The notes under the pieces are model-generated. The model saw only the letters and a list, made by a program, of their open reading frames with translations, ran no database searches and had not been told where the DNA came from. Positions 8,758-26,494 of a stretch of 31,416 nucleotides of DNA are shown piece after piece (the first letter of the stretch is position 1; each line of letters opens with the position of its first letter). The stretch is from Planctomycetota bacterium (lineage in GTDB: Bacteria; Planctomycetota; Phycisphaerae; Phycisphaerales; SM1A02), in NCBI GenBank assembly GCA_003671065.1, contig QWPU01000001.1:1-31416 (forward strand), in the 5' to 3' direction. A program made the translations under genes and the position numbers.

Positions 8758-8806
8758 AGCGAAAATCGATCACGCGTTTGTAACAAGCCCCGCGGCTGAT
8801 CTCGGC

Positions 8807-10264
8807 TTACGCGCCGCGCACGGTCAGCGCCATCAACTTGTTGACATTCGGCGCCGTGTCAATGGCCATGATCTCCGCGCGCAACGCCTCGCACTGCGCA
8901 CGACCAAGCACTGAGTCTCCGAGCGCGTGGAACTTCACAGCGATCTCGTCGACCGTCATCGGATCGCGCGGATCACCCTTGGGCACATCGACGCGCACGC
9001 AATATTGCTTGCCGTTCTTGAGCGTGATCGTCACGCGGCTTGGTTGAAATTTCGGGAAGAGTTTCTCGAACTCATCGTTGGGAACGACCTTCACCATGTC
9101 CATGATGGGAATGAGCGCCTTGTCCATCACGCGTTCTTCTTTGAACTGCAGCGGTGTGACCATGCCATCGACCATGCCTGCCGCCATGCAATAAGGCAAC
9201 GAGTGATCGGCGGTTTCTTTGCTGTCGGGACGATACTTGTGCGGATCGCCAAGAATGTCGGCAGCGCGCGCGATCACTTCGACCTTGATCTCGGTGACAT
9301 CATTCACATGCACATTGCCTTCAGCGCGCGCTTTGAACATCGCTGTCAATGGCGCGTGCGAAAGCGCTTCGACGGGGAAGCTCTTCATGCCGCAATCGAG
9401 AATGCGCCAGTGGCACTTCGACGAAGTAGGTAACGCATCGAGCAACATGTTCACATCAAACCGCGCTGGCTCACCCTTGTACTGCACATGGGAAAACACC
9501 GCGAAAAGCCCCTCTTTACCGTCGAATATGTGCTCGGGTCCCGAGTAGCCACGCTGTGCAAGCAACGCACTTTCAACACCCATTCGCGTCGCCCACGGAT
9601 CAACCGTGTTCTTCATGTTGGTGAGTTTGCCCGCAGTCACGGCTCCTGGCGAGAAGGTACGCGCGGCACTGATGCCGATCGCGTTCACCATTTGCTCAAC
9701 GGTGAGGTTGAGCATGCGACCGGCGGCGATTGGTGCTGCAAACGCGGTGAGCGTTGCGTGATGCCAACCGTACTCGCGAATACCTGGGAGACCGAACTCG
9801 CACAGACGCATTTCGATTTCATACGCAATCGCGGTTCCGAGCAACAAGTCTTTGCCGCTGAGCCCGAGCATTTCAGCAAGCGCGAGAGGTCCCGCGATGA
9901 TGTCGCTTGGATGGCATGGATCCGCCTTCCAATAGATGTCGTTGTAATCCATCGCGCGAATCATGTGATTGTTCAAGAACGACGCATCAACAGCATTCGT
10001 CTTAAAACCAGTCACAAACGATGTGCATGGACCGTGACCTTTGTCACCTTGTGCGGTCATCGCTCGATAGTGTGCGAGCAAGATGTGAGCATCTTCTTGA
10101 CCGCTACCACCAATCGCGCAGCCGATCGAGTCAAACCAGAATCGCTTGCACGCGTCGATGGCGGCGGGCGAAAGTGATTCTGGAGTCAACGCGCACGCCC
10201 ATTCGGCGAGTGTGCGAGAGAGGTGCTTGACGGATGGCTTCTTGGTTTCGGTGGTAGCGGACAT
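8807..10264 (-). CDS. prpD: MmgE/PrpD family dehydratase (2-methylcitrate dehydratase-like)
   Basis: Motifs DSIGCAIGG, RAMDYNDIY, CHPSD, LAYE-like IAYEI, GWHH, GLF, KSFP and ETADHSLPY. Start at ATG 10264 with AGGA upstream. The symbol denotes the family; substrate is uncertain. Confidence 0.88.
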   Translation of the reverse strand: MSATTETKKPSVKHLSRTLAEWACALTPESLSPAAIDACKRFWFDSIGCAIGGSGQEDAHILLAHYRAMTAQGDKGHGPCTSFVTGFKTNAVDASFLNNHMIRAMDYNDIYWKADPCHPSDIIAGPLALAEMLGLSGKDLLLGTAIAYEIEMRLCEFGLPGIREYGWHHATLTAFAAPIAAGRMLNLTVEQMVNAIGISAARTFSPGAVTAGKLTNMKNTVDPWATRMGVESALLAQRGYSGPEHIFDGKEGLFAVFSHVQYKGEPARFDVNMLLDALPTSSKCHWRILDCGMKSFPVEALSHAPLTAMFKARAEGNVHVNDVTEIKVEVIARAADILGDPHKYRPDSKETADHSLPYCMAAGMVDGMVTPLQFKEERVMDKALIPIMDMVKVVPNDEFEKLFPKFQPSRVTITLKNGKQYCVRVDVPKGDPRDPMTVDEIAVKFHALGDSVLGRAQCEALRAEIMAIDTAPNVNKLMALTVRGA

Positions 10265-10322
10265 TGATTGATTCCTACACGAGATTTTGACAACGGCTTC
10301 AGAACACATCACTTCTCACGCA

Positions 10323-11477
10323 CTACTTCGCGACATACTTCGCAACTGCGCGACCGACATCAAGCGTCGTGTCTTTGCCACCCATGTCGTAGGTCTTCAC
10401 TTTGCCTTCTTCGATGACGCGCACAATCGCGGACTCAAGCGCGGCGGCGCGCTCGGTTTCGCCGAGCCACTCAAGCATCATGCGCGCGGTCAGCAACATC
10501 GCGTGCGGATTCACCTTGTATTGCCCTGCATACTTCGGCGCGCTGCCGTGAGTCGGTTCGAACACCGCATAGGTGTCACCGATGTTTGCGCTCGGTGCAA
10601 AGCCAAGTCCACCGATGATGCCTGCGCACAGATCGCTCACGATGTCGCCGAACATATTCTCGGCGACGATCACTGAGTACTCCTGCGGATTCTTAAACAT
10701 CCACATGCAGATCGCATCAATGTTCGCTTCGTCAGCCCAGATGTCTGGATATTCAGTTGCGATCTCGCGGAAGAGACGCGTCATCATGCCGCCTGTGGCG
10801 CGCAAGACATTCGGCTTCTCGACGAGCGTCACACGCTTGCGACCGTTCTTCTTCGCGAACTCAAATGCTTGACGCAGAATGTTCGTGCAACCAGCCTTGC
10901 TCACAATGCGCGTTGAAAGCGCGATGTTTTCCAGTCCTTTCGCTTTCCACGGCTTCATCTTCGGATTGAGGCAGAGCGCGTCGTACACAGCTTCGGGCAG
11001 CGGGTTGAACTCAACACCGCCGTACATGCCTTCAGTGTTTTCACGGAAGACCACGATGTCACACATGACATCAGCGGCCGTTGGATTGGCCAAACGCGTG
11101 CCGCGATAATTGAGCGGATTGCCTTTGTATGTCTTGCATGGACGCAGATTCGTGTGCAGATTAAACATCTGACGCAGTTGCACGATCGGCGAGAAGTAGA
11201 CGAGGTTCTTCGAGCGCAGCGCAGGATCGAGTTCGAGCAGCGCGTCATCTTGCGGCTTGCTGGTGATCGCGCCGAAGAGACCGCAGTGCGTGCGCTTGAG
11301 CACTTCAATCGTGCGATCAGGCAGCGGATTGCCTTCTTTGCACCAGAACTCCCAACCGATGTCGCAGTGGATGTATGTGGCATCGAGCTTCATCGCATCG
11401 AGCACGATGCGCGTTGCTTCCATCACATCGTTACCGATTCCGTCTCCTGGCATCCACGCGATTTGGTGCTTGGTCAT
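10323..11477 (-). CDS. Isocitrate/isopropylmalate/homoisocitrate dehydrogenase family beta-decarboxylating dehydrogenase
   Basis: Motifs PGDGIG, LRQ...NLRP, FRENTEGMY, KPNVL, IDAICM, NMFGDIVSD, GLGFAPSAN and FEPTHGSAPKYAG. Start at ATG 11477 with AGGAG RBS. Confidence 0.92.
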   Translation of the reverse strand: MTKHQIAWMPGDGIGNDVMEATRIVLDAMKLDATYIHCDIGWEFWCKEGNPLPDRTIEVLKRTHCGLFGAITSKPQDDALLELDPALRSKNLVYFSPIVQLRQMFNLHTNLRPCKTYKGNPLNYRGTRLANPTAADVMCDIVVFRENTEGMYGGVEFNPLPEAVYDALCLNPKMKPWKAKGLENIALSTRIVSKAGCTNILRQAFEFAKKNGRKRVTLVEKPNVLRATGGMMTRLFREIATEYPDIWADEANIDAICMWMFKNPQEYSVIVAENMFGDIVSDLCAGIIGGLGFAPSANIGDTYAVFEPTHGSAPKYAGQYKVNPHAMLLTARMMLEWLGETERAAALESAIVRVIEEGKVKTYDMGGKDTTLDVGRAVAKYVAK

Positions 11478-11591
11478 TGTAAATCTCCTGCGAGTAGTTA
11501 TGAAGCGCCGCCATGCGACGCCGAAGTAGGTGCGAAAGTCTAATGAAACCGCTGCGCCGAGGTTGCCCTCAACTCGGTCGAGGAAACACAA

Positions 11592-13583
11592 TCATGCAGG
11601 TTTGAGCGCGGCGAGTCGCTTCTGAATCAATGCTTCTGCCCCACCAGCCACGATGAGTTCCTGCGCGACGGGCGAGAGCGGCGTGAAGCCGAATTCGCGA
11701 TCCGACCACGCGAGGCGGCCAGTTGCGAAGTCGATTGATAGGTCGCCGAGATTGACAGTTTTAGCAGGAGCACTCGAACGCACCTTCGCGCGCATCGCGT
11801 CAACGAGTTCAGGTGCTTCGAAACAGAGGAATCCATTGTTGAAAGCGTTGCGCTTATACGTTTCGCTGAAGCTGCCTGCGATGACACAAGGCACGCCGAA
11901 ATACTTGAGCGCTGTTGCGGCTTGCTCGCGACTCGAGCCCGTGCCGAAGTTGTAGCCACCGATGACGATGTCGCCTGCGTGCGCGGTTGTGCGAAAATCT
12001 GCGTCGTAGTTTTCAAACACGACCGCAGCCATTTCACTCGGCGTGAGTTTGTCGTTGTAGGTGTGCTTGCCTGCGAAGATGCCGTCGGTGTTGAGGTTGT
12101 CGCGATCCATGAATCGCGCAGAACCACGGAGTTTCTCAGGGAATCCAGCGATGATCTGCGCGCTCGCTGCGGGACGCGGCGCGCTAGTCATTCGCGTGAA
12201 ACTCATCGTCGGCTTGATGTTCGCAAATGGTGTCGGTGCGCAGATGTAGCCCGCGAGCGCACTTGCAGCGACCACTGCAGGCGAACCGAGATACACCAGT
12301 CCTTCACGGTCACCCATGCGTCCTTCGAAGTTGCGGTTGGTCGACGAGATGCCGACTTCGCCTTTCTTGATCAGCCCTTCGCCGAGACCGATGCATGTGC
12401 CGCATCCTGCTGGAAGCGTTGTCGCGCCGCAGTCAATGAGCGCTTGCCAGTGACCGAGTCGTTGCGCTTCCGCGCGCACTTCGCTGCTTGCGGGAGCAAC
12501 GAAAAACTCGACACCACTCGCGACCCGTTTGCCGCGCACGATGTCCGCTGCAGCCGCAAGATCTTCAAGTCGCGCGTTCACGCATGACATGAGCCACGCC
12601 TTCTGAATCGCAATCTGCTTCACTTCGATCTCAGGCAAACTCGACATCGCCTTCACTTCATTAGGCCCCGACACATGCGGCACAACCGTGCTCACATCGA
12701 GCGTCAATTCTGCGGCGTAGCGTGCATCAGAATCCGCGGCGTAACTCGCGCGTTCATTCCACCAACGCGCCACATCATCATGCGTGTAACTGCCGCGTGA
12801 ACCCGCGCGTCGTTCGCCTGGTCGTGAAGCCTTCGCAAAGACTTCTGCTCGTGAATCGAGATATTCGCGCAGCACTGCATCAAACGGAAACAAACCCGCA
12901 AGCGCGCCCCACTCAGTCGTCATGTTCGAAATCGACATGCGGCTTCCCATCGAAAGACTCGCAACACCTTCGCCCACAAACTCAACCGCGTGATTGAGCA
13001 CTTCATCGTTCTTGAACAAACCACAGAGCGCGACAATCACATCTTTGCCAACGACACCAGGCATGAGCCGACCAGTGAGCGTCACGCGCGCCACTGGCGG
13101 CACTTGCCACCATGTCGTGCCCGTCGCCCAAATGCTCGCCGCATCCGTGCGCACAACGGGAGTTCCAAGTGCACACAACGCGCCATACATATTCGAGTGC
13201 GAATCACTGCCGACCACCATCGCGCCTGGCACCACATAACCCTGCTCGACCATCACTTGATGCGAGATGCCTGTGCCCGCGGGATAGAAGTCGACACCGT
13301 GTTCTGCTGCAAACATGCCGATTTTTGCATACTTTCCAAGATTGTCGGCCGTGACATTTTGGATGTCGTGGTCAATCGCAAACACCGCTTGATTCGGATC
13401 GAAGATGCGCGTGGCACCAATCGACTTGAACTTAGGAATCACCGCGCCCGTGTTGTCGTGCGTCATGATGTGCTTGGGGCGGATCATCACGAACTCGCCC
13501 TGACGCACGATGGCGCCCTGCGCTAGCCCATCAGTCCAGCGCGCGGCGATCTTCTCAACGAGTGTGAGTGCATGAGTCGTCAT
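11592..13583 (-). CDS. lysF: Single-chain homoaconitase-like hydratase (fungal Lys4/LysF type; aconitase large and swivel domains fused)
   Basis: Motifs TLVEKI, THDN, DHD, GISHQ, GSDSHS, GTPVVRTDAASIWATGTTWWQVPPV and NMTTEWGAL. Fe-S cysteines in SCVN and GCGTCIG. STNRNFEGRMG. Swivel domain NLNTDGI and NFGTGSSREQA. Motif wording matches fungal Lys4 as I recall it. Confidence 0.85.
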   Translation of the reverse strand: MTTHALTLVEKIAARWTDGLAQGAIVRQGEFVMIRPKHIMTHDNTGAVIPKFKSIGATRIFDPNQAVFAIDHDIQNVTADNLGKYAKIGMFAAEHGVDFYPAGTGISHQVMVEQGYVVPGAMVVGSDSHSNMYGALCALGTPVVRTDAASIWATGTTWWQVPPVARVTLTGRLMPGVVGKDVIVALCGLFKNDEVLNHAVEFVGEGVASLSMGSRMSISNMTTEWGALAGLFPFDAVLREYLDSRAEVFAKASRPGERRAGSRGSYTHDDVARWWNERASYAADSDARYAAELTLDVSTVVPHVSGPNEVKAMSSLPEIEVKQIAIQKAWLMSCVNARLEDLAAAADIVRGKRVASGVEFFVAPASSEVRAEAQRLGHWQALIDCGATTLPAGCGTCIGLGEGLIKKGEVGISSTNRNFEGRMGDREGLVYLGSPAVVAASALAGYICAPTPFANIKPTMSFTRMTSAPRPAASAQIIAGFPEKLRGSARFMDRDNLNTDGIFAGKHTYNDKLTPSEMAAVVFENYDADFRTTAHAGDIVIGGYNFGTGSSREQAATALKYFGVPCVIAGSFSETYKRNAFNNGFLCFEAPELVDAMRAKVRSSAPAKTVNLGDLSIDFATGRLAWSDREFGFTPLSPVAQELIVAGGAEALIQKRLAALKPA

Positions 13584-13598
13584 GAGTGGTGCTTTCAA

Positions 13599-14189
13599 TT
13601 ACTTCTTGCTTGCAGCGCGCTTCCCCAGCCACTTGGCGATGTCGAAATCCACGAAGTCAGCGTGGTGGAAGATGATCGACTCGATGCTGCGTTCAACTTT
13701 GTCGCCTTCGTGACTGTGCGTGGCAATGATGTGCATGACATCTGCAGGAACTCCGTGCTTGTAAGCCATTGCGACACCACTGAACGGATGACGCAGCGCT
13801 TCGCCGAAGGAACCCTTGATGATGTCTCCTGCTGCATTCTTATCGAATTCCAGCGGTTTTCCACAGTCGGCGAGCAAGGCGCCCGCGATCAGGTAATCGC
13901 GATTGATAGGAATGTCGCAAGTGAAAGCCGATTCAAGCACATCCGCAATCGCAATGCACTGACGCGCGCATGAGTTCAAGTGCTCGACGAATGTCATCTC
14001 GATATCGCCCGCAAGCAGCGTGAACTTCACGGCGCGCAACTCATCGACTGTCCAGCCTTTGCCGCCACAGCCCGTGTTGATGGCTTCGTTCCACACGGCT
14101 GCAACTCGATCGCGCAGTGATGCGTCCTTGATGTCCATGAGGTTGGGGAAAATCGCGGCGATGTCGGCGGTGGTAAAGGTCTTAGGCAT
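13599..14189 (-). CDS. HD-superfamily (HDIG-like) putative metalloprotein with an AD in place of the HD motif
   Basis: Motifs FVEH, IAGALLADCGK, LRHPFSG, IATHSHEGD and FHHADF. Start at ATG 14189; the ORF track starts at 14201. Confidence 0.75.
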   Translation of the reverse strand: MPKTFTTADIAAIFPNLMDIKDASLRDRVAAVWNEAINTGCGGKGWTVDELRAVKFTLLAGDIEMTFVEHLNSCARQCIAIADVLESAFTCDIPINRDYLIAGALLADCGKPLEFDKNAAGDIIKGSFGEALRHPFSGVAMAYKHGVPADVMHIIATHSHEGDKVERSIESIIFHHADFVDFDIAKWLGKRAASKK

Positions 14190-14213
14190 GGTGTGGTTCA
14201 AGATGAAAGAAAC

Positions 14214-15914
14214 TCAGGCGTTGATGGGTCCGTCGTACGCGTGCTTCACAGGATCGATGCGGCGCATTGGCTTCTCGCGCGTTTGTTCTTCGACGACATG
14301 CGCAACAAGTCCTGGCGTTCGCGCAATCATGAAGATGCCGTTGAAGAGCGCAGGATCAAGCCCAACATCAGCGAGAATCGCACCGATCGCGCCATCGACA
14401 TTGATCGGAAGCGGCTTGCCCGTTGCAGCAAACGCAGCTTCAAGCGCGCGCGCGGCAGCGATGTGAGCGCCGTTGATACCTGCAAGCGCGGCGAGTTCAA
14501 AGAGTCGCGGCGTGCGCGGATCTTTAGTGTGAATGCGATGACCAAAGCCGCTGAAGCGTTCGCCTCGCGCTTTGAACTCCATCATCGTTGCGTTTGCAGC
14601 CGCATCAATTGTGATGCGCTCACTCGACGCGCGCGCGATCAGTGCTGCAAGTTGGCGCGCGCAATCTTCGATCGCACCACCGTGATGACGATTGATCGAC
14701 ATGATGCCCGCAGCAACGCTCGCCCCGAGTGACGCGCCTGTCGAAGCGACGGTGCGCGCAGCAAGGCATGACGGCGGCGTCGCTCCGTGATCAATGCTCG
14801 CAACCAAAATCGCATCCATCAATCGCCCCACGCGTTCATCAGGCAGCGCGCCTGTGAGAATCAGATACACCGCGGCGCCAAAGGATGTGTTGCCCATGAG
14901 GTCTGCGATGTTGTGCCCGCGCACCGCAACATTGTTCGGCGCAATACGCGTGACGGCGGTCGTCCACACTGCTTCTCGTTCAGCCTGCGTCATAAGACTC
15001 TTTCCACCAAGTCGTTTGAGCACTTCAACAGTCGCGCTCGCGAGATCGCCAAACGCCTCAACCACCGTTGCGCCCGCTTCACGCAATGCCAGCACTTTGC
15101 CTGCGTGTGTACCGCGTCCACCTTCGATGATCGCGCCTGCGTGACTGAAGCGAGTGCCTTCTTTTGCAGCCTTTCCGCCGATGTATGCGATGACTGGCTT
15201 TGTCACACGCTTGCTTCGAATGAGCTCAGCGAGTTCTTCTTCTTGCGATGAACCGATTTCACCAAACACAACAATCGCTTCAGTTTGCGCGTCCGCTTCA
15301 AAGCGCAACGCTGCCTCGGGAATGCGAATGCCAAGCACCGCATCGCCGCCGACATGCACGATGGTGCTGATGCGCACGCCTTCTTGACCGAGGTAATAGC
15401 CCGTTGAACTACTCATGCCACCTGAACGACTCACGATGCCAACACCAGTTGGTAGCGGTGGCTTGAACCACTGGCGCGCGCTCTCTGCGCGTCCACCGAG
15501 CATGCCTGCAACAGCGCGACCTGGACTCAACACACCGAGCGTGTTCGGACCAAGAAACTCAGCGCCCTTCTCGGCTGCGCGCTCGGCAATCGCCATCGCG
15601 TCCCACACAGGCACGCGATCCGCAACAAGCACAACGAGCTTGACGCCCGCATCAATCGCTTCGATCGCAGCTTCGCGCACCATCTTTGCGGGCACGAACA
15701 GCACGCTCACATCAATAGCGCCGACGCTCTTGATTGCGTCAGAAACCGTATGAAACACAGGGATTCCAAGCACTTCGCCGCCGCCGCGACCTGGCGTCAC
15801 GCCTGCAACGACATTGGTTCCATAGTCAAGCATGAGACTCGTGCGCGCTTGACCTTCACGACCAGTGATGCCTTGCACACACACGCGCTTTGTTCGATCG
15901 ATGAGAATGCTCAT
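14214..15914 (-). CDS. Succinyl-CoA-synthetase alpha-like subunit fused to a citryl-CoA lyase (citrate synthase fold) domain; ACL subunit A-like
   Basis: N-terminal about 300 aa: VQGITGREG, GVTPGRGG, LGPNTLG, SRSGG, HVGGD, GEIG and the phospho-His motif FSHAGAI. C-terminal about 260 aa: IDHG, HHGGA, GFGHR, DPR, NVDG and ARTPGLVAH. Confidence 0.9.
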   Translation of the reverse strand: MSILIDRTKRVCVQGITGREGQARTSLMLDYGTNVVAGVTPGRGGGEVLGIPVFHTVSDAIKSVGAIDVSVLFVPAKMVREAAIEAIDAGVKLVVLVADRVPVWDAMAIAERAAEKGAEFLGPNTLGVLSPGRAVAGMLGGRAESARQWFKPPLPTGVGIVSRSGGMSSSTGYYLGQEGVRISTIVHVGGDAVLGIRIPEAALRFEADAQTEAIVVFGEIGSSQEEELAELIRSKRVTKPVIAYIGGKAAKEGTRFSHAGAIIEGGRGTHAGKVLALREAGATVVEAFGDLASATVEVLKRLGGKSLMTQAEREAVWTTAVTRIAPNNVAVRGHNIADLMGNTSFGAAVYLILTGALPDERVGRLMDAILVASIDHGATPPSCLAARTVASTGASLGASVAAGIMSINRHHGGAIEDCARQLAALIARASSERITIDAAANATMMEFKARGERFSGFGHRIHTKDPRTPRLFELAALAGINGAHIAAARALEAAFAATGKPLPINVDGAIGAILADVGLDPALFNGIFMIARTPGLVAHVVEEQTREKPMRRIDPVKHAYDGPINA

Positions 15915-17452
15915 GCGCCACCTCCGCAGCCATCGAGCGCTCGCGTTGGATCAGCAATATCCAGTTCAACAAAGAACCCTGCGACACCAGACGCGCGGCA
16001 TTCCACTTCGCACGCGATGAGTTCGCTGTCTTTCGAAGCGAATTTGTCGGCATCGACATTGAGTGCAGGACGACCAGCATCATCGCGCAAAAGACCAGAG
16101 GACTGCGCAATGATCTTCGCTGCGTGTGTTGTCCACGCCGCAGGATCGATCCACACTCGTCCACCTGTTATTGGAAAACTCACTGCGTTCTTTGCGCCAA
16201 CAAATGCTGGCATACGCGGCGCGCGCGGCTTCCAACACGCGTTCGCTTCTTCGACAAGTTCACCAAAGCGCTTCGCAATCTTCGCAGGAGGATCAGTCTT
16301 CACGAAGCCTTCAATCTTCGCGCGCAGATCTCGCGCTGCTTGATGCAGAATCGCGACGGCGCGTTCTTCACCATTGCCGCCAAGACGAATGACGACAGGG
16401 ATATCAATGTCGAGTTCGTAGAACGCTTTCGCGAGTCCATACGCGCTCCAGAATTGTTCTTGATTTGCAACACCCGATCCTGAGCCGAAGTAGCCGCATA
16501 GTCCAGGCTGCGAGAGAATCACGCGACTCGCGCGATACACCTTTGCGGCTGAAGGATTTCCACTGGTGTCTGTGAAGTTCGCAACAGTGAAGTGCTCGGC
16601 GGTGAGCGCATCCATGCTCATCATCGAACCGCCACCGCCCGCGCCGTGAAAGCCCGCGAGACCACGCGTGCCCGCAGCAGCCGTGTTTGCAAGCTCTGCG
16701 AAGTAGAAGGTGCCGCGATGATCTGCTTGCTCGATGTTGTAGGCGACGCGTTCAAGCGCGGTCGGCGGATGATCGAACTCGCGCGCGATTTCAATGCCGA
16801 GATCAGGATGACGCCACACCGCGTAATCGTCGATGGTGATGCGGCAATCAGCGGCAACCACGCTTCCATCCGCAAGAATCACCAGTGGATTCACCTCGAC
16901 GCTGCTGGCATCGCGCGATTTCGCGAGAGTGAAGATCGCGCAGATCGCTGCCGACACCGACGCGCGCTCCGTTGTTGACAGTCCAAGCGCTGCAATCGCC
17001 GATGCAAGCGCGGCCGCATCAGGTCCACTTGAAACGCGGCACGGAATGCGAGCAACTTCATTCGCGCGTTCTTCGATGCCCGTGCCGCCAGCAGCCGCAA
17101 GCAGAATCACTGGTGCACGCGCGCGATCATCAACACTGAGCGACACAAATAATTCGCGCACAAAGGAAAGCTTTTCTTCGACTAAGACCGCGTCGACTGG
17201 AAAGTTGCCGACGCGCATGCCGATCATGCGATCTGCGGCAACCGCAGCTTGCGCGGGCGTCGTCGCAAACGCCACGCCGCCGATGCCTTTGCGGCCAGTC
17301 ATCCACGCCTGAATCTTCACAACGGTCTCGCAACCGAGTTGCGCCGCGACTTTCTCAGCGGCCTGCGCGCTTGATGCGACAGCGCCGCGTGGAATCTTGA
17401 TGCCTGCTGCAGCAAGCAGCGCTTTACCTTGGTGTTCATGCAGTCGCGCCAT
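15911..17452 (-). CDS. Succinyl-CoA-synthetase beta / ATP-citrate lyase subunit B-like ATP-grasp ligase subunit with a C-terminal extension
   Basis: Motifs RLHEHQGK, VVKIQ..GRKGIGGV, LVEE, ELFVS, EVNPL, ADCRITIDDYA, GAGGGGS, NFTDTSGNP and RLGGN. Start at ATG 17452. The stop overlaps the alpha-subunit start (ATGA). Confidence 0.88.
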   Translation of the reverse strand: MARLHEHQGKALLAAAGIKIPRGAVASSAQAAEKVAAQLGCETVVKIQAWMTGRKGIGGVAFATTPAQAAVAADRMIGMRVGNFPVDAVLVEEKLSFVRELFVSLSVDDRARAPVILLAAAGGTGIEERANEVARIPCRVSSGPDAAALASAIAALGLSTTERASVSAAICAIFTLAKSRDASSVEVNPLVILADGSVVAADCRITIDDYAVWRHPDLGIEIAREFDHPPTALERVAYNIEQADHRGTFYFAELANTAAAGTRGLAGFHGAGGGGSMMSMDALTAEHFTVANFTDTSGNPSAAKVYRASRVILSQPGLCGYFGSGSGVANQEQFWSAYGLAKAFYELDIDIPVVIRLGGNGEERAVAILHQAARDLRAKIEGFVKTDPPAKIAKRFGELVEEANACWKPRAPRMPAFVGAKNAVSFPITGGRVWIDPAAWTTHAAKIIAQSSGLLRDDAGRPALNVDADKFASKDSELIACEVECRASGVAGFFVELDIADPTRALDGCGGGA

Positions 17453-17528
17453 TTGTGGGGCGCAGTGTAGAGAAGCTTCCATGATTGCGTGACGATTTCG
17501 CAGCGCTTCACCTGTTAGAGTTCATCTC

Positions 17529-18599
17529 GTGACGCAGCAGAATCAGTCGCGATATCACCGCCAAGAGCTACTCGCGGGCATTGGACCTGACGGCCAGGCG
17601 AGGTTGCGAGCGTCTCACGCATTAGTTGTTGGATGCGGCGCGCTCGGTTGCGCGGTCGTCGACATTCTTGCGCGCGCGGGCATCGGACGACTCACGATTG
17701 TGGATCGCGACATTGTTGAACGAACCAACTTGCAGCGGCAAACGCTGTATTCCGAACGCGATGCGGCCAATGGAACACCCAAGGCAATCGCGGCACAGCG
17801 TCGCGTCGCAGAGATCAATCCCGAGGTCATCTGCCGCGGCGAAGTTGATCATGTCGGACCTGAAAGCGTGCTGTCTTACGCGCGTGACACCGATGTGATT
17901 CTCGATGGTCTCGACAACTTGCACACGCGCTTCCTACTCAATGATGTCGCGGTTTCACTGGGAAAACCCTACTTCTACGGCGGTGTTGTCGCCACGCGCG
18001 GCATGTCGATGCCAGTGTTGCGCGATGAGGCCTGTCTGCGCTGCTTGTTTCCCGACAGCTCGATGCAAACGGGCGAAACTTGCGACACGGTGGGCGTGTT
18101 GATGAGTGCGGTGCTAGCAGTCAGCGCGCATCAAGCGACGCAAGCGATCAAGTGGATTGTCGGCGCGCACGCCGCGATTGATCGTTCGCTCTGGTCGATG
18201 GATGCGTGGACGAATCGCACGACGCGAGTTTCGTTGACCAATGCGCGTGATGCGAATTGTCCCTGCTGCGCTGCGCGAAACTTTGAGTTTCTTGCGGGAA
18301 TGCACGACGATCAGGCCGCGATATTGTGTGGCCGCAACGCTGTGCAGATTGCGCCGCGTCGCACGGGGACGAACGCGACGATGGCGCTTGATCTTCGACG
18401 CGCCGCCGTGACACTCCGCGCGCATGGAACATTCATCGAACGCGACGGACTGCTTGTCGGCACATTCACAAGCGTGCGCACCAACGACGATAGCGCGGTC
18501 GAACTCACACTCTTTCCCGATGGACGCGCGATCGTGAAGGGCACGACGGATGAAGTGTTCGCTCGCAGCGTCTATGACCGCTTTGTGAGCGGACTTTAG
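17529..18599 (+). CDS. moeB: ThiF/MoeB family adenylyltransferase (molybdopterin synthase sulfur-carrier activating enzyme)
   Basis: RYHRQ, nucleotide-binding VVGCGALG, DRDIVERTNLQRQ, DGLDN, and Zn sites CLRC and CPCC. No rhodanese domain. Located in the Moco cluster. Confidence 0.85.
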   Translation: MTQQNQSRYHRQELLAGIGPDGQARLRASHALVVGCGALGCAVVDILARAGIGRLTIVDRDIVERTNLQRQTLYSERDAANGTPKAIAAQRRVAEINPEVICRGEVDHVGPESVLSYARDTDVILDGLDNLHTRFLLNDVAVSLGKPYFYGGVVATRGMSMPVLRDEACLRCLFPDSSMQTGETCDTVGVLMSAVLAVSAHQATQAIKWIVGAHAAIDRSLWSMDAWTNRTTRVSLTNARDANCPCCAARNFEFLAGMHDDQAAILCGRNAVQIAPRRTGTNATMALDLRRAAVTLRAHGTFIERDGLLVGTFTSVRTNDDSAVELTLFPDGRAIVKGTTDEVFARSVYDRFVSGL

Positions 18600-18635
18600 A
18601 ACAGCGCGTTTGCAGCCAAAATAGGCTTCATTTCG

Positions 18636-19382
18636 ATGGACCCCTCGCACCTTCCCATCCTCGTGCCGCTCTTTCTGATTGTGGGCGTGCTCTATGCGAG
18701 CGTCGGTCACGCGGGCGCATCGGGCTACCTCGCAGTAATGGCGCTTGTCGGCGTTGAAGCCACACTCATGCGGCCGACGGCGCTTGCAATCAACATCCTT
18801 GTCGCCAGCATTGCGCTCGCGCAGTTTGCACGCGCGGGATTTTTCTCGTGGCGATTGCTCTGGCCATTTGCAGCGCTCTCGATACCAGCCGCGTACTTCG
18901 GCGCCATGATCAAAGTAGGACCAGGAACACTTCGCGTCAGTATCGGAATCGTGCTACTCGCAAGCGCGCTGCGGATGGTGTGGGTCGCGTGGCGACCAGC
19001 GAGCGAAGTGATCACACCTCAAGCGCCCGCGATCGGCGTCGGGCTTGCGTGCGGAGCGATGATTGGTTTCGTCGCTGGATTGACGGGCACAGGTGGCGGC
19101 ATTTTTCTGAGCCCGCTGCTTCTTATCTTCAATTGGGCAGATACCAAACGAACCGCCGCGATTGCGCCGGCATTCATTCTCGTCAACTCGATCGCCGCGC
19201 TCACCGCGCTTTCGCAAGAAGGTTGGCAGCCAACTCCTGCGATCGGCGTGCTCGCGCTTGCCGCGTGCGTGGGCGGATTCATCGGCGCGCACTTCGGAAG
19301 TCGCCGCCTTGGACATCGTGGATTGCGCGTTGTTCTCGCCCTCGTGCTTGCGCTTGCAAGTGCGAAGCTCATCCTCAGTTAA
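18636..19382 (+). CDS. TauE/SafE (TSUP, DUF81) family membrane permease
   Basis: About 8 hydrophobic segments with the repeated motifs VGHAGASGY and GLTGTGGGIFLSP. Confidence 0.87.
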   Translation: MDPSHLPILVPLFLIVGVLYASVGHAGASGYLAVMALVGVEATLMRPTALAINILVASIALAQFARAGFFSWRLLWPFAALSIPAAYFGAMIKVGPGTLRVSIGIVLLASALRMVWVAWRPASEVITPQAPAIGVGLACGAMIGFVAGLTGTGGGIFLSPLLLIFNWADTKRTAAIAPAFILVNSIAALTALSQEGWQPTPAIGVLALAACVGGFIGAHFGSRRLGHRGLRVVLALVLALASAKLILS

Positions 19383-19437
19383 CCTGATTTGCCCTGTGAT
19401 AATCGCTATTACGGATATGATAGTCTAGATATACTCG

Positions 19438-20535
19438 ATGCGAACTTCGATCTGTACAACTCCCCTGCCGCTGAAGCTGTTTGGATCGACTTCGGTCGCT
19501 TCCACAGTCGTGCCTGATGCAGCCGCGCCGCATCCGACCACGGGCGCGTTGATCGATCGATTCGGACGCGTCGTGCGTGACTTGCGACTTTCGATCACTG
19601 ATCGTTGCAACTTTCGATGCACCTACTGTCTGACACCTGACGCGCGATTCCTAGCGACCTCTGATCGCTTGAGCACTGCGGAACTCATTCGCGTTGGGCG
19701 CGTGTTCGCACGACTCGGCATCGAACGACTGCGCGTCACGGGTGGTGAACCGAGTGTGCATCCTGATCTGATTGAGATTCTTTCGGCGCTTTCACCGCTG
19801 TTTCACGATGTATCGATGACGACGAATGGATCGCTTCTCGACGACGACAGCGCTCGCGCGTGGAAAGCTGCGGGGTTGCGACGCGTCACCATCAGCATCG
19901 ACTCACTGGATCCTGCGCGCTTTCAAGCAGTCACTCGTTCGAATGTCACAAGTGAGCGCGTGCTTGCGGGTTTGCGTGCGGCGATCAATGCTGGACTCGG
20001 ACCCGTGAAGGTCAACTCAGTGCTACTTGCAGGCGTGAATGACGCAGACGCTCCTGCGCTTGCTGCACTCGCGCGTGAGCTCGCGCTTGAAGTGCGCTTC
20101 ATTGAGTTCATGCCGCTTGATGCGGATGGCATTTGGAGTCACGACACGGTTGTCTCCAGCGAACGCACGATTTTGGGCATTTCCAAGGTGTTTCCGCTGG
20201 TGCTTGAGGGACGGGATCGACCTGATCGCACCGCGGTGCGCTATCGATTCGTCGACGGTGCCGAGGGAAGCGTCAGCACAATTGCGCCAGTTTCAACGCC
20301 GTTCTGCGCGGAGTGCAGTCGTGTACGCGTCACGGCTGACGGCTTCATTCGGCCCTGCTTGCTCACCAACGCTGAGTGGCCGTTGCGAGAACTCTTGCGC
20401 GATGGATCGAGTGATGATGCGATTGAATGTGCGATTCGCCACGCGGTGTGGAACAAGGACGCGGGTGGCGCACTGCGATTGAGCGCTGCGAGAAGTGGCG
20501 CGCGCGGACGAACGATGTCCGCGATCGGAGGCTAA
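19438..20535 (+). CDS. moaA: GTP 3',8-cyclase (radical SAM)
   Basis: DRFGR..DLRLSITDRCNFRCTYC, RVTGGEP, RFIEFMP, the C-terminal cluster motif FCAECSRVRVTADG...CL, and terminal MSAIGG. Confidence 0.95.
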   Translation: MRTSICTTPLPLKLFGSTSVASTVVPDAAAPHPTTGALIDRFGRVVRDLRLSITDRCNFRCTYCLTPDARFLATSDRLSTAELIRVGRVFARLGIERLRVTGGEPSVHPDLIEILSALSPLFHDVSMTTNGSLLDDDSARAWKAAGLRRVTISIDSLDPARFQAVTRSNVTSERVLAGLRAAINAGLGPVKVNSVLLAGVNDADAPALAALARELALEVRFIEFMPLDADGIWSHDTVVSSERTILGISKVFPLVLEGRDRPDRTAVRYRFVDGAEGSVSTIAPVSTPFCAECSRVRVTADGFIRPCLLTNAEWPLRELLRDGSSDDAIECAIRHAVWNKDAGGALRLSAARSGARGRTMSAIGG

Positions 20536-20987
20536 CGCTCGTGACTTGCGCGCTCATCAACATCGTTGTGAAACACAGGTCGCTTCCACAACGGCACATC
20601 GATCTTCATTCGATCGATGAACTCGCCCATCGCCAACAGTGCCTCGACGCGATGCGCGGAATCGATGGTCAAGCGGAAACTGCACTCGCCGACAGCGACG
20701 CGACCAACGCTGTGTTCAACCGCAACACGCACCAGCCCGTGCTTGATGCAAACTTCACGCGCGAGTTGTTCAAGCAAACGATCTGCCATCGGACGATACG
20801 CCTCGTAGTTGAGCGCAGCGATGACTCGCTCACCTTCTTGCGCGCGAACGATTCCTTCGAACTTCAGCGCCGCGCCCACAGTGCACGCTCCATCGCCAAG
20901 CAGCGGCAGAGCCGCGCAGCTCACTCCAAGTGGACCGTCGATGAGCGTGATAGTGATGATTGGTGTGTCATTCGCCACGGTGTTCAT
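20532..20987 (-). CDS. moaE: Molybdopterin synthase catalytic subunit
   Basis: GA..FEGIVR, LNYEAY..MA, HSVGRVAVGE, HRVEA and IDRMKIDVPLWK. The ATG at 20987 overlaps the moaD stop (ATGA). Confidence 0.93.
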   Translation of the reverse strand: MNTVANDTPIITITLIDGPLGVSCAALPLLGDGACTVGAALKFEGIVRAQEGERVIAALNYEAYRPMADRLLEQLAREVCIKHGLVRVAVEHSVGRVAVGECSFRLTIDSAHRVEALLAMGEFIDRMKIDVPLWKRPVFHNDVDERASHER

Positions 20988-21229
20988 CCGCCAGAAACAA
21001 GCCCAATCAAAGCACATTCGTCGTTCTCAAGCACGCGTCGATCGCGTTGTGCAAACTCGCCGTTGACCGCAAGTCGCGCAGCGCGCACTGCATTCGCAAT
21101 GGAGGGACACTGCGAGGCCAATGCCCCCAGCACATCGGCAGCAGATGCGCCGTGTGCAACCTCAACGACTACGCTCGACGCTCCAACGGCGTCGCGCTCG
21201 GGACCAAACAAGAGCACTTTGACTTTCAT
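20984..21229 (-). CDS. moaD: Molybdopterin synthase sulfur carrier subunit (81 aa)
   Basis: MKVKVLLFG..., AVNGEF and the C-terminal VSGG. Start moved from ORF-track 21406 to ATG 21229. Confidence 0.92.
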   Translation of the reverse strand: MKVKVLLFGPERDAVGASSVVVEVAHGASAADVLGALASQCPSIANAVRAARLAVNGEFAQRDRRVLENDECALIGLVSGG

Positions 21230-21249
21230 GTGAAGCAAGGAATATAGCA

Positions 21250-21639
21250 ATGGCGACACGCGCACAAACAACACGAACTTCAAAGCCAGGCAAAGCGAAG
21301 GTATCGCCGAAGACTCCAGGCTCTTATCAACGATTTGGGATCGAGCAGCCGACGATCCTCGCTCACTACGAAGCGCTGGGACTTGCGTGCGCACAAGCTG
21401 GGCCACTCGATACGCGCACCATCGCGCTGTGCAAACTCGCGCTTTCTTTCGGCGCGGGGCTCGAAGGCGCCGCGCACTCGCACTGTCGCAAGGCGCTCGA
21501 AGCTGGTTGCACTGCGGATGAACTCATGCATGTTGCAATTCTCGGCGCGCCGACGATTGGCTTTCCATCGATGATGCGCAATCGCGGATGGGTGGAAGAT
21601 GTTGTGAAGGCTCGCGCCTCGAGGTCGACGAAGAAATGA
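21250..21639 (+). CDS. Carboxymuconolactone decarboxylase/AhpD-like family protein
   Basis: GPLDTRTIALCKLALS...HSHCRKALEAG.T..EL.HV..L..PTIGFP pattern of short CMD proteins. No CxxC. The stop overlaps the moeA start (ATGA). Confidence 0.75.
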   Translation: MATRAQTTRTSKPGKAKVSPKTPGSYQRFGIEQPTILAHYEALGLACAQAGPLDTRTIALCKLALSFGAGLEGAAHSHCRKALEAGCTADELMHVAILGAPTIGFPSMMRNRGWVEDVVKARASRSTKK

Positions 21640-22841
21640 CGCTCAGTGCGATCAGCACCATGACACCTGACGACGCGCTTGCTGCGCTGTTGAAAGGTGT
21701 GCGTTGTGTTGAGTGCGAGAGCATCGCGTTGACGCACGCGACTGGTCGAGTGCTCGCACAATCAGTGATGACTGATCGACCGAGTCCTGCGATGGATGTG
21801 AGCGCAATGGACGGTTTTGCACTGCGATTTGCTGATGTTTCGCGTGATGCGCTTGCGATCAGCGACGAGATCAGCGCGGGCGAACCTGCGCAACCGCTGC
21901 AAAGCGATTCGTGCGCGCGTATCGCAACAGGCGCGCCGATTCCGCTTGGCGCAGAGTTGGTTGTGCCGCGCGAACATGTTGATGAAGCAGGCGACAGCAT
22001 CACCGTGCACGCGATTCGCGCGAGTGCTGCGCGAATGGGCGCGCACATTCGTCGGCGTGGTGAGAACGCGGCTGAAGGTGCGTGCGTGCTCGAACGCGGC
22101 GTCGCGATTCACGCGCCCGCCGCAGCAGCGCTTGCTGCGTTTGGCGTTGTGAGTCCGCGCGTCACTCGAAAGGTTCGCATCGCGCTGCTTGTGACTGGCG
22201 ATGAAGTGCGCACGAACGATGATGAACTAGCGCCGTGGTGCGTGCGCGATAGCAACGGCCCTTCAGTCACTGCGCTCTTCGCGCGCCACGCGTGGGCAGC
22301 ACCCATCGTGCCCGAGCATGTCGTTGATAGCGCTGCGGCATTGCGTGATGCGTTGACGCGTGCGATTGAACTACATGATCTCGTGCTCGTCACTGGTGGC
22401 GTCGCTGTAGGCCACCGCGATTTCGTCGCGACGGTCCTCGATGAACTTGGCGCGCAGACGCACTTTCATGGCGTTGCGCAACGACCCGGTCGACCGCTGC
22501 TTGCCGCAACATTGCGCGAGCGTCGCATCCTCTGCCTTCCAGGAAATCCTGTGAGCGTGATGACTACTGCGCGTCGCTATGCACTACCACTCGCGCGCGT
22601 TGTAGCTGGTTTTTCTGCAGCAGAACCGATGTCACACCCAGTCTCGCTCGTCGAGGCGCTGCGTGATTGCGTTCCTCTCACTCGCTTCGTTCCAGTGCAC
22701 ATATCTGCGCACGGCAATGCCCGCGCCCTCATCACGCGCGGCAGCGGTGACAGCGCCGCAGTTGCATCGAGCGACGGTTTCGTTGAGATTCCCGCTTCTG
22801 CGAGCGGCGTTGGACCGTGGCGATTTTTCGAATGGAGTTGA
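21636..22841 (+). CDS. moeA: Molybdopterin molybdotransferase
   Basis: GRVLA, SAMDGFA, IATGAPIP, TGDE, DSN, TGGVAVG..DF, QRPGRP and LPGNPVS. Start at ATG 21636. Confidence 0.93.
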   Translation: MTLSAISTMTPDDALAALLKGVRCVECESIALTHATGRVLAQSVMTDRPSPAMDVSAMDGFALRFADVSRDALAISDEISAGEPAQPLQSDSCARIATGAPIPLGAELVVPREHVDEAGDSITVHAIRASAARMGAHIRRRGENAAEGACVLERGVAIHAPAAAALAAFGVVSPRVTRKVRIALLVTGDEVRTNDDELAPWCVRDSNGPSVTALFARHAWAAPIVPEHVVDSAAALRDALTRAIELHDLVLVTGGVAVGHRDFVATVLDELGAQTHFHGVAQRPGRPLLAATLRERRILCLPGNPVSVMTTARRYALPLARVVAGFSAAEPMSHPVSLVEALRDCVPLTRFVPVHISAHGNARALITRGSGDSAAVASSDGFVEIPASASGVGPWRFFEWS

Positions 22842-22845
22842 ACTC

Positions 22846-24481: not shown

Positions 24482-24489
24482 CGCAATCG

Positions 24490-25185: not shown

Positions 25186-25194
25186 GGCTTGAGA

Positions 25195-26478: not shown

Positions 26479-26494
26479 AGAAGCGGTGGTGATG

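Follow-up and report, generated by a model that had tools for sequence, protein, structure and literature searches.

What would a heterotrophic bacterium do with an enzyme built like an ATP-citrate lyase (ACL) when the genes beside it encode a homoaconitase, a dehydrogenase, and a PrpD-like protein? The question is raised by a 31,416-nt stretch of DNA (the window) from a Planctomycetota bacterium (SM1A02; assembly GCA_003671065.1, contig QWPU01000001.1, positions 1-31,416), in which six closely packed, co-directional open reading frames (ORFs) on the minus strand span positions 8807-17482. We found that these genes form a real, conserved, and mobile unit in which an ACL-like enzyme most likely drives aminoadipate-pathway chemistry for a new purpose, the catabolism of lysine. 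Specifically, gene content and context give about an even chance that the module is the upper aminoadipate pathway run in reverse, breaking lysine-derived 2-oxoadipate into acetyl-CoA and 2-oxoglutarate with ATP.

Six genes conserved together in two phyla

We assigned the window proteins to families with Pfam and NCBIfam profiles, judging scores against curated cut-offs (Table 1). The six ORFs lie where a first-pass annotation of this DNA had placed six consecutive minus-strand genes, and their Pfam and NCBIfam families match those it proposed. The ATGA stop/start overlap that it described between the SucC-like and fusion genes can be read directly in the sequence at 15911-15914, and the other intergenic gaps, taken from probable starts, are 24, 15, 114, and 58 bp, in agreement with its account. 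It had also noted that the window lacks a LeuA-family homocitrate synthase, prpB and prpC, and the lysW/X/Y/Z/J/K genes. Our profile scan likewise detected no HMGL-like (LeuA/homocitrate synthase), PrpB, PrpC, or LysW/X/Y/Z/J/K family among the window's other large ORFs. A scan for promoters and terminators returned fewer sites than shuffled controls.

Table 1. Genes of the module and the HglS gene in the right flank of the window
Feature	Position	Strand	Profile support
SucC-like ATP-grasp (beta) subunit of ligase	15911-17482 (probable start 17452)	-	Pfam ATP-grasp_2, 119 bits; weak Citrate_bind
SucD-like alpha/citryl-CoA-lyase-type fusion	14214-15914	-	Pfam CoA_binding, Ligase_CoA, and C-terminal Citrate_synt
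HD-fold protein, ~196 residues	13599-14201 (probable start 14189)	-	Pfam HD, 32 bits (cut-off 22); HDIG, 33 bits
Lys4-type single-chain homoaconitase	11592-13598 (probable start 13583)	-	Aconitase and Aconitase_C; TIGR00139, 728 versus 529.9 bits
Beta-decarboxylating dehydrogenase	10323-11591 (probable start 11477)	-	Pfam Iso_dh, 290 bits
Divergent MmgE/PrpD-family protein	8807-10312 (probable start 10264)	-	MmgE_PrpD_N, 221 bits; MmgE_PrpD_C, 129 bits
HglS/YdcJ-type 2-oxoadipate dioxygenase/decarboxylase, 568 residues	28843-30549	-	Pfam HGLS, 285 bits

Database relatives of the fusion protein number more than 2000, and many share ~75% identity with it; few of them are named, and those labels are citryl-CoA lyase or succinyl-CoA synthetase alpha. 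When contigs from one genome per species were searched with this protein, at least 558 stretches were found to encode a relative, and we characterized the best 80 by lineage. These best 80 of at least 558 were mostly Chthoniobacterales (including Candidatus Udaeobacter), plus Phycisphaerae and other Planctomycetota.

Synteny was assessed by tblastn with the six window proteins across 82 loci. Identical gene order was found in loci from both Planctomycetota and Verrucomicrobiota at 60-90% amino-acid identity, and order is retained in the Phycisphaerae, Planctomycetia, and Chthoniobacterales. Because the order recurs in two phyla at this level of identity, the six-gene arrangement is far beyond chance, and the concern that the families might not be conserved together can be set aside. 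The complete set was present in 21 of the 82 loci. The SucC-like gene adjoins the fusion gene in 74 of 82, while the HD gene adjoins the lyase in 65 of 82 and in every variant of the module (fused, split, or with a stand-alone citryl-CoA lyase [CCL]). Downstream genes were counted in the 51 loci with at least 9 kb of downstream sequence: HD was present in 43, homoaconitase in 37, dehydrogenase in 33, and PrpD in 22. In a split set, the missing genes may sit elsewhere in the same genome (e.g., G236). No consistent seventh partner was found in the Verrucomicrobiota, where inserted ORFs were mixed (TPR, metallo-beta-lactamase, histidine-kinase-like ATPase, and adenylate cyclase).

Linkage to genes of lysine breakdown

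To find recurrent neighbors of the module, we clustered all flanking ORFs of the 82 loci. Glutaryl-CoA dehydrogenase, of the acyl-CoA dehydrogenase family (445 bits to PDB 2eba; 378 bits to the human enzyme, GCDH), lies beside the module in 27 loci from the Chthoniobacterales, and a thiolase recurs beside it in 26 loci. L-Lysine 6-transaminase, a class-III aminotransferase (TIGR03251, 581 versus 521 bits), and L-piperidine-6-carboxylate (P6C) dehydrogenase (NF050084, 781 versus 730 bits) are found beside the module in 16 Chthoniobacterales loci. This pair is downstream of PrpD in 11 of the 16; in 5 of the 16 it runs in the direction of the operon and stops ~35 bp short of the fusion gene, which places it in the same transcription unit in those five loci. 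In some Chthoniobacterales loci, the module sits between glutaryl-CoA dehydrogenase on one side and the transaminase and P6C dehydrogenase on the other. That the genes stay linked despite such rearrangement is an argument for selection.

Eight Phycisphaerae loci have a non-homologous gene, of the saccharopine/lysine-dehydrogenase family, within the operon or next to it. Among solved structures, its product is closest to PH1688 (3abi, 72.6 bits), an L-lysine 6-dehydrogenase. As a separate observation, eight Planctomycetota loci contain a gene of the tryptophanase/tyrosine-phenol-lyase family (PRK13238, 601 bits) between the HD and hydratase genes (L061:12907-15458, L066, L070, L082, L064, L097, L099, and L100). 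It often follows the saccharopine-dehydrogenase-family gene, but the two sets of eight loci overlap only partly.

The association extends to genes that lie elsewhere in the genome. Of 10 module genomes, 9 have a P6C dehydrogenase that exceeds its cut-off, among them all three with the ligase-less variant f21 described below, and the tenth falls 6 bits short; among control genomes, the cut-off is exceeded in 1 of 14. In the window's own genome it is encoded on contig 158 (735 bits). Across 121 genomes of the order to which the Verrucomicrobiota genome G234 belongs, the transaminase occurs in all 7 carriers of the fusion gene versus 9 of the 114 others (one-sided Fisher test, p = 1.8e-7, a value that is overstated since related genomes are not independent). 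A glutaryl-CoA dehydrogenase orthologue was present in 4 of 4 Verrucomicrobiota carriers and was not found in six Planctomycetota carriers, so that the usual exit from 2-oxoadipate is missing in the latter.

The window itself also encodes HglS, an enzyme that acts on 2-oxoadipate (Table 1). This gene belongs to the genus-conserved right flank, and the same-genus genome G224 has HglS at 58% identity without the operon; the genus thus already has an oxygen-dependent exit from 2-oxoadipate. We therefore rejected functional coupling between HglS and the operon as a linkage argument.

The metabolite common to the module's lysine-gene neighbors is 2-aminoadipate/2-oxoadipate. On this ground the C7 series is favored for hydratase, dehydrogenase, and PrpD-like protein alike and, through them, for the ligase/lyase. 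From these sequence-based associations, we consider it fairly probable that the substrate is of the C7 type (homocitrate/2-oxoadipate), whichever the direction.

Variants of the module and its invariant core

Two sister families (f88 and f89) contain a split version of the module, in which SucD and lyase are separate genes (66-72% identity) with the HD, hydratase, and dehydrogenase genes nearby. In this version a GNAT acetyltransferase gene lies between the lyase and HD genes (L100:11529-12083; L097-L099), and in L100 a PD-(D/E)XK-family ORF lies between the SucD and lyase genes. Another family, f21 (L101:9747-19521 and L102:365-10225; genomes G017 and G103), has a stand-alone lyase (51% identity) together with HD (38%) and dehydrogenase (58%) genes. 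Its order is CCL, HD (with a canonical LHDVGK), HacA/HacB, dehydrogenase, and a second HacA/HacB. The f21 cluster is without a SucCD-like ligase and without PrpD, whose place is occupied by the second HacA/HacB. The swivel-loop motif TD.IF.GK.TY, present in the window's fused hydratase, recurs in the first HacB but not in the second. In two genera the cluster is followed by genes for an AMP-forming acyl-CoA ligase, an IolE-like protein, and a BioF/serine-palmitoyltransferase-like protein.

Since the split and ligase-less versions retain these parts, the invariant core of the module is the lyase, the HD protein, two different hydro-lyases, and the dehydrogenase. Homocitrate (in fungi and Thermus) and methylcitrate require two hydro-lyases; citrate does not. 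The retention of two hydro-lyases therefore fits homocitrate or alkylcitrates, not citrate.

The f21 cluster also bears on a rival explanation, as it holds the sole citrate-synthase-, aconitase-, and Iso_dh-family genes of genomes that are up to 98% complete (no HMGL-like gene was found in the f21 genomes). This would be in keeping with a module that works on citrate, in which an additional type of ATP-citrate lyase, a split aconitase made of the PrpD and Lys4-type proteins, and an NADP isocitrate dehydrogenase (IDH) would reversibly connect acetyl-CoA and oxaloacetate with 2-oxoglutarate. Its role would be reductive carboxylation of glutamate-derived 2-oxoglutarate or ATP-conserving synthesis of citrate. 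We consider a citrate-level module unlikely. One aconitase suffices for citrate, yet two distinct hydro-lyases are kept in every variant. Outside f21, citrate synthase and AcnA occur in each carrier examined, and IDH occurs in most. Furthermore, the carriers are heterotrophic, and the gene is patchy, mobile, and not part of a carbon-fixation cycle. Nor would a citrate substrate explain the linkage to, and co-occurrence with, lysine 6-transaminase, P6C dehydrogenase, glutaryl-CoA dehydrogenase, and the lysine/saccharopine-dehydrogenase-family gene.

The window's own metagenome-assembled genome (MAG; G000, 78% complete) encodes two ordinary citrate synthases, AcnA, and a monomeric IDH. Among four Verrucomicrobiota carriers and one Phycisphaerales carrier, citrate synthase and AcnA were found in 5 of 5 and a further Iso_dh-family gene in 4 of 5. 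With these enzymes present in its own genome and in other carriers, we rejected the possibility that the operon replaces the front end of the tricarboxylic acid (TCA) cycle.

The ligase/lyase pair and the HD-fold protein

The building plan of the ligase is that of ACL and citryl-CoA synthetase (CCS), with an ATP-grasp beta subunit and a CoA-binding alpha subunit that has a Ligase_CoA (phosphohistidine) domain, while its closest PDB entries are succinyl-CoA synthetases. The SucC-like subunit, whose residue 13 aligns with residue 2 of SucC, has a C-terminal extension of ~130 residues and best matches the beta subunit of Thermus succinyl-CoA synthetase (148 bits), followed by the CCS large subunit (6hxq_B, 104 bits) and ACL beta (6hxj_A, 85 bits). 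In the fusion protein, residues 1-300 make up the SucD-like alpha part and residues 310-566 a citryl-CoA-lyase-type domain with the citrate-synthase fold. In the PDB, its N-terminal half scores highest with true SucD (254 bits) and lower with the CCS small subunit (152 bits), and the protein exceeds the cut-off of the NCBIfam citryl-CoA lyase subfamily (243 versus 212 bits). The lyase motifs IDHG, HGGA, GFGHR, DPR, NVD, and AR are invariant in 31 orthologues and include the catalytic His/His/Asp and the keto-acid-binding Arg residues, on an assignment that uses the numbering of pig citrate synthase.

The lyase domain is where a citrate-level module finds much of its support. It matches Hydrogenobacter CCL (6hxp) with 189 bits and ~55% identity, all of the motifs are retained, including the Arg residues that hold oxaloacetate, and there is no visible enlargement for 2-oxoglutarate. 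The published reading also points this way: Thiel et al. 2017 (PMC5459899) set a Planctomycetes ccsB-ccl fusion between CCS/CCL and type II ACL, and they read the ligase/lyase pair as a putative ATP-citrate lyase for citrate cleavage in the reductive TCA cycle.

The small protein encoded beside the lyase matches Pfam HD, although the canonical H...HD...D phosphohydrolase motif is not present. The HD doublet reads AD, with Ala in place of His, in all ligase-bearing orthologues, whereas the ligase-less f21 version retains LHDVGK. Four residues (D102, D112, H138, and H162) are invariant across 50 members of the family. A profile search against PDB sequences found no close solved relative (best E = 0.0055, YhaM), and a complex predicted from the HD protein and two lyase-domain copies scored 0.00, which counts neither for nor against an association. 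Contigs carrying distant HD homologues were mostly very short, but one again shows SucD-like, CCL, HD, and aconitase genes. That the HD protein is a homocitryl/citryl-CoA thioesterase inactivated beside the ligase fits the His-to-Ala replacement but conflicts with a catabolic reading of f21, and we regard it as no more than an idea.

Hydratase, dehydrogenase, and PrpD-like protein

The hydratase is a single chain with a C-terminal swivel domain. The first-pass annotation called it a Lys4-type homoaconitase, and the assignment is borne out by its score above the TIGR00139 equivalog cut-off (Table 1); the mitochondrial aconitase model reaches only 194 bits. Its nearest ESM Atlas cluster, "Homoaconitase, mitochondrial family," mixes bacteria and Mucoromycota. 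In 47 orthologues, all three 4Fe-4S ligands (one Cys in SCVNAR, two in GCGTC) are conserved, as are the swivel-loop NTDGI..GK.TY and GSSREQAA. That the hydratase passes a homoaconitase equivalog and not an aconitase one is a further argument against a citrate-level module.

The dehydrogenase is harder to place. All NCBIfam equivalogs are below cut-off, those for IDH included, and the best is the AksF2 homoisocitrate dehydrogenase (HICDH; 321 versus 540 bits). Aligned to IDHs from the PDB and to Thermus HICDH, it has FSPIVQLRQ where IDH has S-x-N-V-x-x-R and HICDH has Arg85. Of the IDH S-x-N motif, with which E. coli Ser113/Asn115 bind the gamma-carboxylate, alignment to 6ltf/6m3s shows Ser retained and Asn replaced by Ile; at the position of Thermus Arg85 there is Val. 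Arg85 reportedly recognizes the distal carboxylate (Miyazaki et al. 2003); a search for this determinant in the literature at hand found nothing. The enzyme also reads HGSAPKYAG where NAD enzymes read HGSAPDIAG, a Lys-Tyr NADP-type motif instead of Asp-Ile. It carries two insertions, and the motifs are conserved in 37 orthologues, including those of f21. Judged by these residues, the dehydrogenase fits the canonical form of neither IDH nor HICDH. An insertion of 13 residues immediately before FSPIVQLRQ might compensate for the missing HICDH Arg. In the citrate-level explanation, an IDH-type Ser combined with the NADP-type Lys-Tyr, and without the HICDH Arg, would simply mark an enzyme for isocitrate.

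The same active-site residues admit another substrate series, such as leucine- or isoleucine-type chemistry, repeated elongation (2-oxopimelate/2-oxosuberate), or the breakdown of another alkyl- or hydroxy-citrate. The Ile-Val of the dehydrogenase at the IDH Asn115/Val116 positions is as hydrophobic as Leu90/Leu91 of isopropylmalate dehydrogenase. In addition, no LeuA, LeuB, or LeuCD was found in the window's own genome or in four Verrucomicrobiota carriers, and the f21 clusters are followed by the acyl-CoA ligase and BioF/serine-palmitoyltransferase-like genes. We nevertheless regard such a series as very improbable. The lyase retains both Arg residues that bind a dicarboxylic keto acid, the hydratase is of the Lys4 type, and the lysine-gene linkage is specific. 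Relatives of Candidatus Udaeobacter have moreover been described as auxotrophs for branched-chain amino acids (bioRxiv 10.1101/053942). The window's MAG and four Chthoniobacterales carriers have no LeuA, LeuB, or LeuC/D homologue outside the operon, and it is possible, judging from this gene content, that these organisms are leucine auxotrophs, as for Candidatus Udaeobacter.

The PrpD-like protein scores far below the PrpD equivalogs (104, 59, and 42 bits against cut-offs of 950, 575, and 458, respectively). In the PDB it is matched best by IDS epimerase and cis-aconitate decarboxylase (~80 bits), whereas true PrpD (5mvi) scores 46 bits. By its profile matches it is a member of the wider MmgE/PrpD superfamily only, and it is presumed to be an Fe-S-independent (de)hydratase for the step at the tertiary alcohol. 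E. coli PrpD dehydrates citrate, which counts in favor of a citrate-level module.

A proposed route from 2-oxoadipate to acetyl-CoA and 2-oxoglutarate

We infer the C7 rather than C6 substrate, the direction, and every catalytic assignment from protein families and their genomic context. In the route that we propose, the NADP-type dehydrogenase would reductively carboxylate 2-oxoadipate with CO2 and NADPH to give homoisocitrate. The Lys4-type Fe-S hydratase would then dehydrate homoisocitrate to cis-homoaconitate, which the PrpD-family protein would hydrate to homocitrate. Lys4-type enzymes do not catalyze this cis-homoaconitate/homocitrate half-reaction. With ATP and CoA, and by way of a phosphohistidine, the SucC-like/SucD-like ligase would form homocitryl-CoA, and the fused citrate-synthase-fold domain would cleave it to acetyl-CoA and 2-oxoglutarate. 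The HD-fold protein is an obligatory partner of the lyase. The IDH/aconitase/ACL segment of the reductive TCA cycle, a chemical homologue of this proposed route, runs in vivo.

The catabolic direction is the most coherent one here because the linked lysine genes (transaminase and P6C dehydrogenase) are catabolic, because the window's own genome has LysA and 2-oxoadipate is without a biosynthetic use in it, and because the dehydrogenase has the NADP-type Lys-Tyr motif. The AMP-forming acyl-CoA ligase gene after the f21 cluster in two genera was also counted toward direction. In the window's own genome, LysA (416 bits) clears its cut-off of 298, whereas LysX gives no more than 37 bits. No homocitrate synthase was found there, the sole HMGL-like match being a 293-residue frame, and the genome thus does not have the aminoadipate route of lysine synthesis. 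LysA is also over its cut-off in 3 of 4 Verrucomicrobiota carriers tested. Given LysA and the absence of LysX and homocitrate synthase, we rejected a role for the operon in supplying lysine in its own genome.

The first-pass annotation had proposed a (homo)citrate/2-oxoacid conversion. The C7 chemistry of that model gains from the neighboring and co-occurring lysine/2-aminoadipate genes; its preferred direction does not. It had favored an ATP-conserving replacement for homocitrate synthase, for which we see no evident purpose in this genome. Its second option, degradation of 2-oxoadipate in reverse, fits better with the catabolic genes that are linked to the module.

Forward operation would convert acetyl-CoA, 2-oxoglutarate, ADP, and Pi into homocitrate, CoA, and ATP, and homocitrate onward to 2-oxoadipate, which would feed either aminoadipate-type lysine synthesis or a glutaryl-CoA dehydrogenase/thiolase route. 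Several observations would suit it. A LeuA-class homocitrate synthase is absent from the window's own genome and from four Verrucomicrobiota carriers, SucCD-type ligases are reversible, and the glutaryl-CoA dehydrogenase and thiolase genes just upstream in 26-27 loci could take 2-oxoadipate onward. We regard forward operation as decidedly unlikely all the same. With LysA in the window's own genome and in 3 of 4 Verrucomicrobiota carriers tested and no LysX seen, 2-oxoadipate is without a biosynthetic use there, and the linked transaminase and P6C dehydrogenase already make 2-aminoadipate from lysine. The Planctomycetota carriers have no glutaryl-CoA dehydrogenase to take it onward, and an NADP-type cofactor motif is unusual for a biosynthetic HICDH.

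One carrier is informative about both substrate and direction. G238 (Phycisphaerales STL-PLA9) has the aminoadipate route of lysine synthesis, with a LysW-type cluster that encodes homocitrate synthase (473 versus 414 bits), LysK, LysZ, LysY, and LysX (L113; G238:C1:550000-569999) and no LysA. The genome is without lysT/lysU, and the operon's hydratase is its sole non-AcnA aconitase-family gene. Because the LysW-type cluster holds no homoaconitase or HICDH gene, the operon, ~410 kb away, probably supplies these two steps of lysine synthesis. As the only non-AcnA candidate in a genome with the aminoadipate route, the hydratase appears from this gene content to handle a C7 substrate, which indicates C7 chemistry in G238. 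The hydratase, dehydrogenase, and PrpD genes of G238 thus probably serve lysine synthesis in the forward direction, as a homocitrate synthase substitute would want; but G238, which needs the forward route, has a classical homocitrate synthase. Homocitrate synthase and LysX are absent from the window's own genome and present in G238.

Several findings weigh against reverse operation of the aminoadipate pathway. The resemblance of the lyase domain to CCL, with every motif retained, and the Val in place of the HICDH Arg have been described above. The f21 cluster could be a route to 2-oxoglutarate, and the loops of its dehydrogenase and hydratase agree with those in the window's enzymes; against this objection, the f21 genomes have P6C dehydrogenase and are without glutaryl-CoA dehydrogenase. 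In the Verrucomicrobiota, glutaryl-CoA dehydrogenase adjoins the module, so that the canonical 2-oxoadipate route coexists with it, as HglS does in the window. In the window's genus (g1), P6C dehydrogenase is core (24 of 25 genomes), and it and HglS occur without the module. Finally, running the module in reverse would consume ATP and NADPH, while the glutaryl-CoA route generates reducing power.

Probable horizontal transfer of the operon

The fused gene was absent from 200 evenly sampled Planctomycetota genomes and from 24 genomes of the window's genus, and it is patchy in the Verrucomicrobiota (7 of 121 genomes in the order of G234). In a tree of the fusion protein (midpoint root, quick method), the window groups with three Phycisphaerales-type sequences, and the Chthoniobacterales, on very short branches, are nested in a clade with basal Planctomycetia/Isosphaeraceae. 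The tree suggests that the module was transferred from Planctomycetota to Verrucomicrobiota. Near-identical copies of the fusion gene were also seen in MAGs labeled Nitrospirota and Leptolyngbya (Cyanobacteriota) (L072 and L075), which the tree places among Udaeobacter sequences and among Phycisphaeraceae sequences, respectively. These are likely mis-binned contigs or very recent transfers.

Contig 5 of the same-genus genome G224 carries the genes of both flanks of the window at 55-88% amino-acid identity, with the operon absent. On the left, the shared genes encode a permease, a histidine kinase, a response regulator, and two VWA proteins; on the right, they encode a sulfotransferase, ORF287, and HglS. 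Between these syntenic flanks, G224 lacks a block of ~17.7 kb (~8.8-26.5 kb of the window) that includes the operon and the adjoining ThiF/TauE/molybdenum-cofactor genes. Since the operon is missing there, it sits in a variable island and was probably acquired horizontally; a deviation in GC content was not clear. The island (8800-26500) holds the operon, a divergent ThiF/MoeB-like gene, TauE, MoaA, MoeA, MoaC, a MogA-like gene, MobA, a K+ channel, and a GT4 glycosyltransferase. The synteny of both flanks with G224 also led us to reject a mis-binned contig as the origin of the window.

Relation to known systems and significance

The module can be compared with four known systems. With CcsAB and Ccl of Hydrogenobacter thermophilus and with AclBA (6hxq, 6hxp, and 6hxj), it shares three building blocks, namely an ATP-grasp beta subunit, a CoA-binding/phosphohistidine alpha subunit, and a lyase with the citrate-synthase fold; its lyase and alpha subunit are parts of one chain, as they are in AclA. 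The module differs in that its ligase halves are closer to true succinyl-CoA synthetase, its beta subunit has the ~130-residue tail, and an HD-fold protein always accompanies the lyase. It occurs in heterotrophs that retain citrate synthase, and the genes linked to it are of the homoaconitase-type, dehydrogenase, PrpD, and lysine-catabolic kinds instead of those for the reductive TCA cycle. Unlike CCS/CCL and ACL, the ligase/lyase probably acts on homocitrate rather than citrate, as its neighbors suggest.

The upper alpha-aminoadipate pathway of fungi and Thermus likewise has a single-chain Lys4-type hydratase, a beta-decarboxylating dehydrogenase, and 2-oxoadipate as its end metabolite, and it too splits the isomerization between two enzymes (aconitase and Lys4/LysF). 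In the module, however, a citrate-synthase-fold ligase/lyase stands in place of the LeuA-family homocitrate synthase, and a PrpD-family protein would replace aconitase at the tertiary-alcohol step. The module's dehydrogenase is NADP-type and without the HICDH Arg, its direction is likely catabolic, and, except in G238, it is linked to lysine degradation and not to LysW or Lys2/Lys9/Lys1 genes. The methylcitrate cycle resembles the module in combining a citrate-synthase-fold enzyme, a PrpD-family dehydratase for the step that aconitase cannot do, and an aconitase-family hydratase. In contrast, the module is without PrpB/PrpC, ends in a dehydrogenase instead of a lyase, and has a PrpD homologue that is closer to IDS epimerase and cis-aconitate decarboxylase than to PrpD.

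The known exits from 2-oxoadipate (2-oxoadipate dehydrogenase/glutaryl-CoA dehydrogenase, and HglS to D-2-hydroxyglutarate) start from the same proposed metabolite and share the module's upstream enzymes (lysine 6-transaminase or dehydrogenase, and P6C dehydrogenase). Genes of both are found near the module, with glutaryl-CoA dehydrogenase in Verrucomicrobiota loci and HglS in the window. The module would differ from them as an ATP-driven, oxygen-independent reductive carboxylation that returns 2-oxoglutarate and acetyl-CoA, which is not described in the literature searched. The first-pass annotation knew of no named pathway with this gene set. In the literature that we searched, only Thiel et al. 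2017 (PMC5459899) mention the ligase/lyase pair, and no paper joins it to homoaconitase, dehydrogenase, PrpD, HD, or lysine catabolism. The Udaeobacter genome paper identified no ATP-citrate lyase (bioRxiv 10.1101/053942).

We are evenly divided on whether the module contains a new activity, an ATP-dependent homocitrate lyase composed of succinyl-CoA-synthetase-like subunits, a citryl-CoA-lyase-type domain, and an HD accessory, working within the reverse route. If so, it would be a new substrate class for the ACL architecture. Even with citrate as the substrate, the combination of a split aconitase and a three-part ACL that has an HD subunit would be new enzymology. There is also a risk of mis-annotation. 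Metagenome surveys of Planctomycetota and Verrucomicrobiota can mistake the ligase/lyase genes for ACL and take them as signs of autotrophy by the reductive TCA cycle; here, they occur in heterotrophs beside lysine-degradation genes.

If the proposed route is correct, it would give a function to a bacterial clade of "fungal-type" homoaconitases, a dehydrogenase subfamily, a PrpD subfamily, and an HD-fold family. It would be the third bacterial way to dispose of 2-oxoadipate in lysine breakdown and the first such exit that needs neither oxygen nor glutaryl-CoA, spreading between Planctomycetota and Verrucomicrobiota. Its carriers include relatives of Chthoniobacterales/Udaeobacter, which rank among the most abundant bacteria in soil and subsist on amino acids that they scavenge, so that the pathway may matter for the turnover of nitrogen and carbon in soil.

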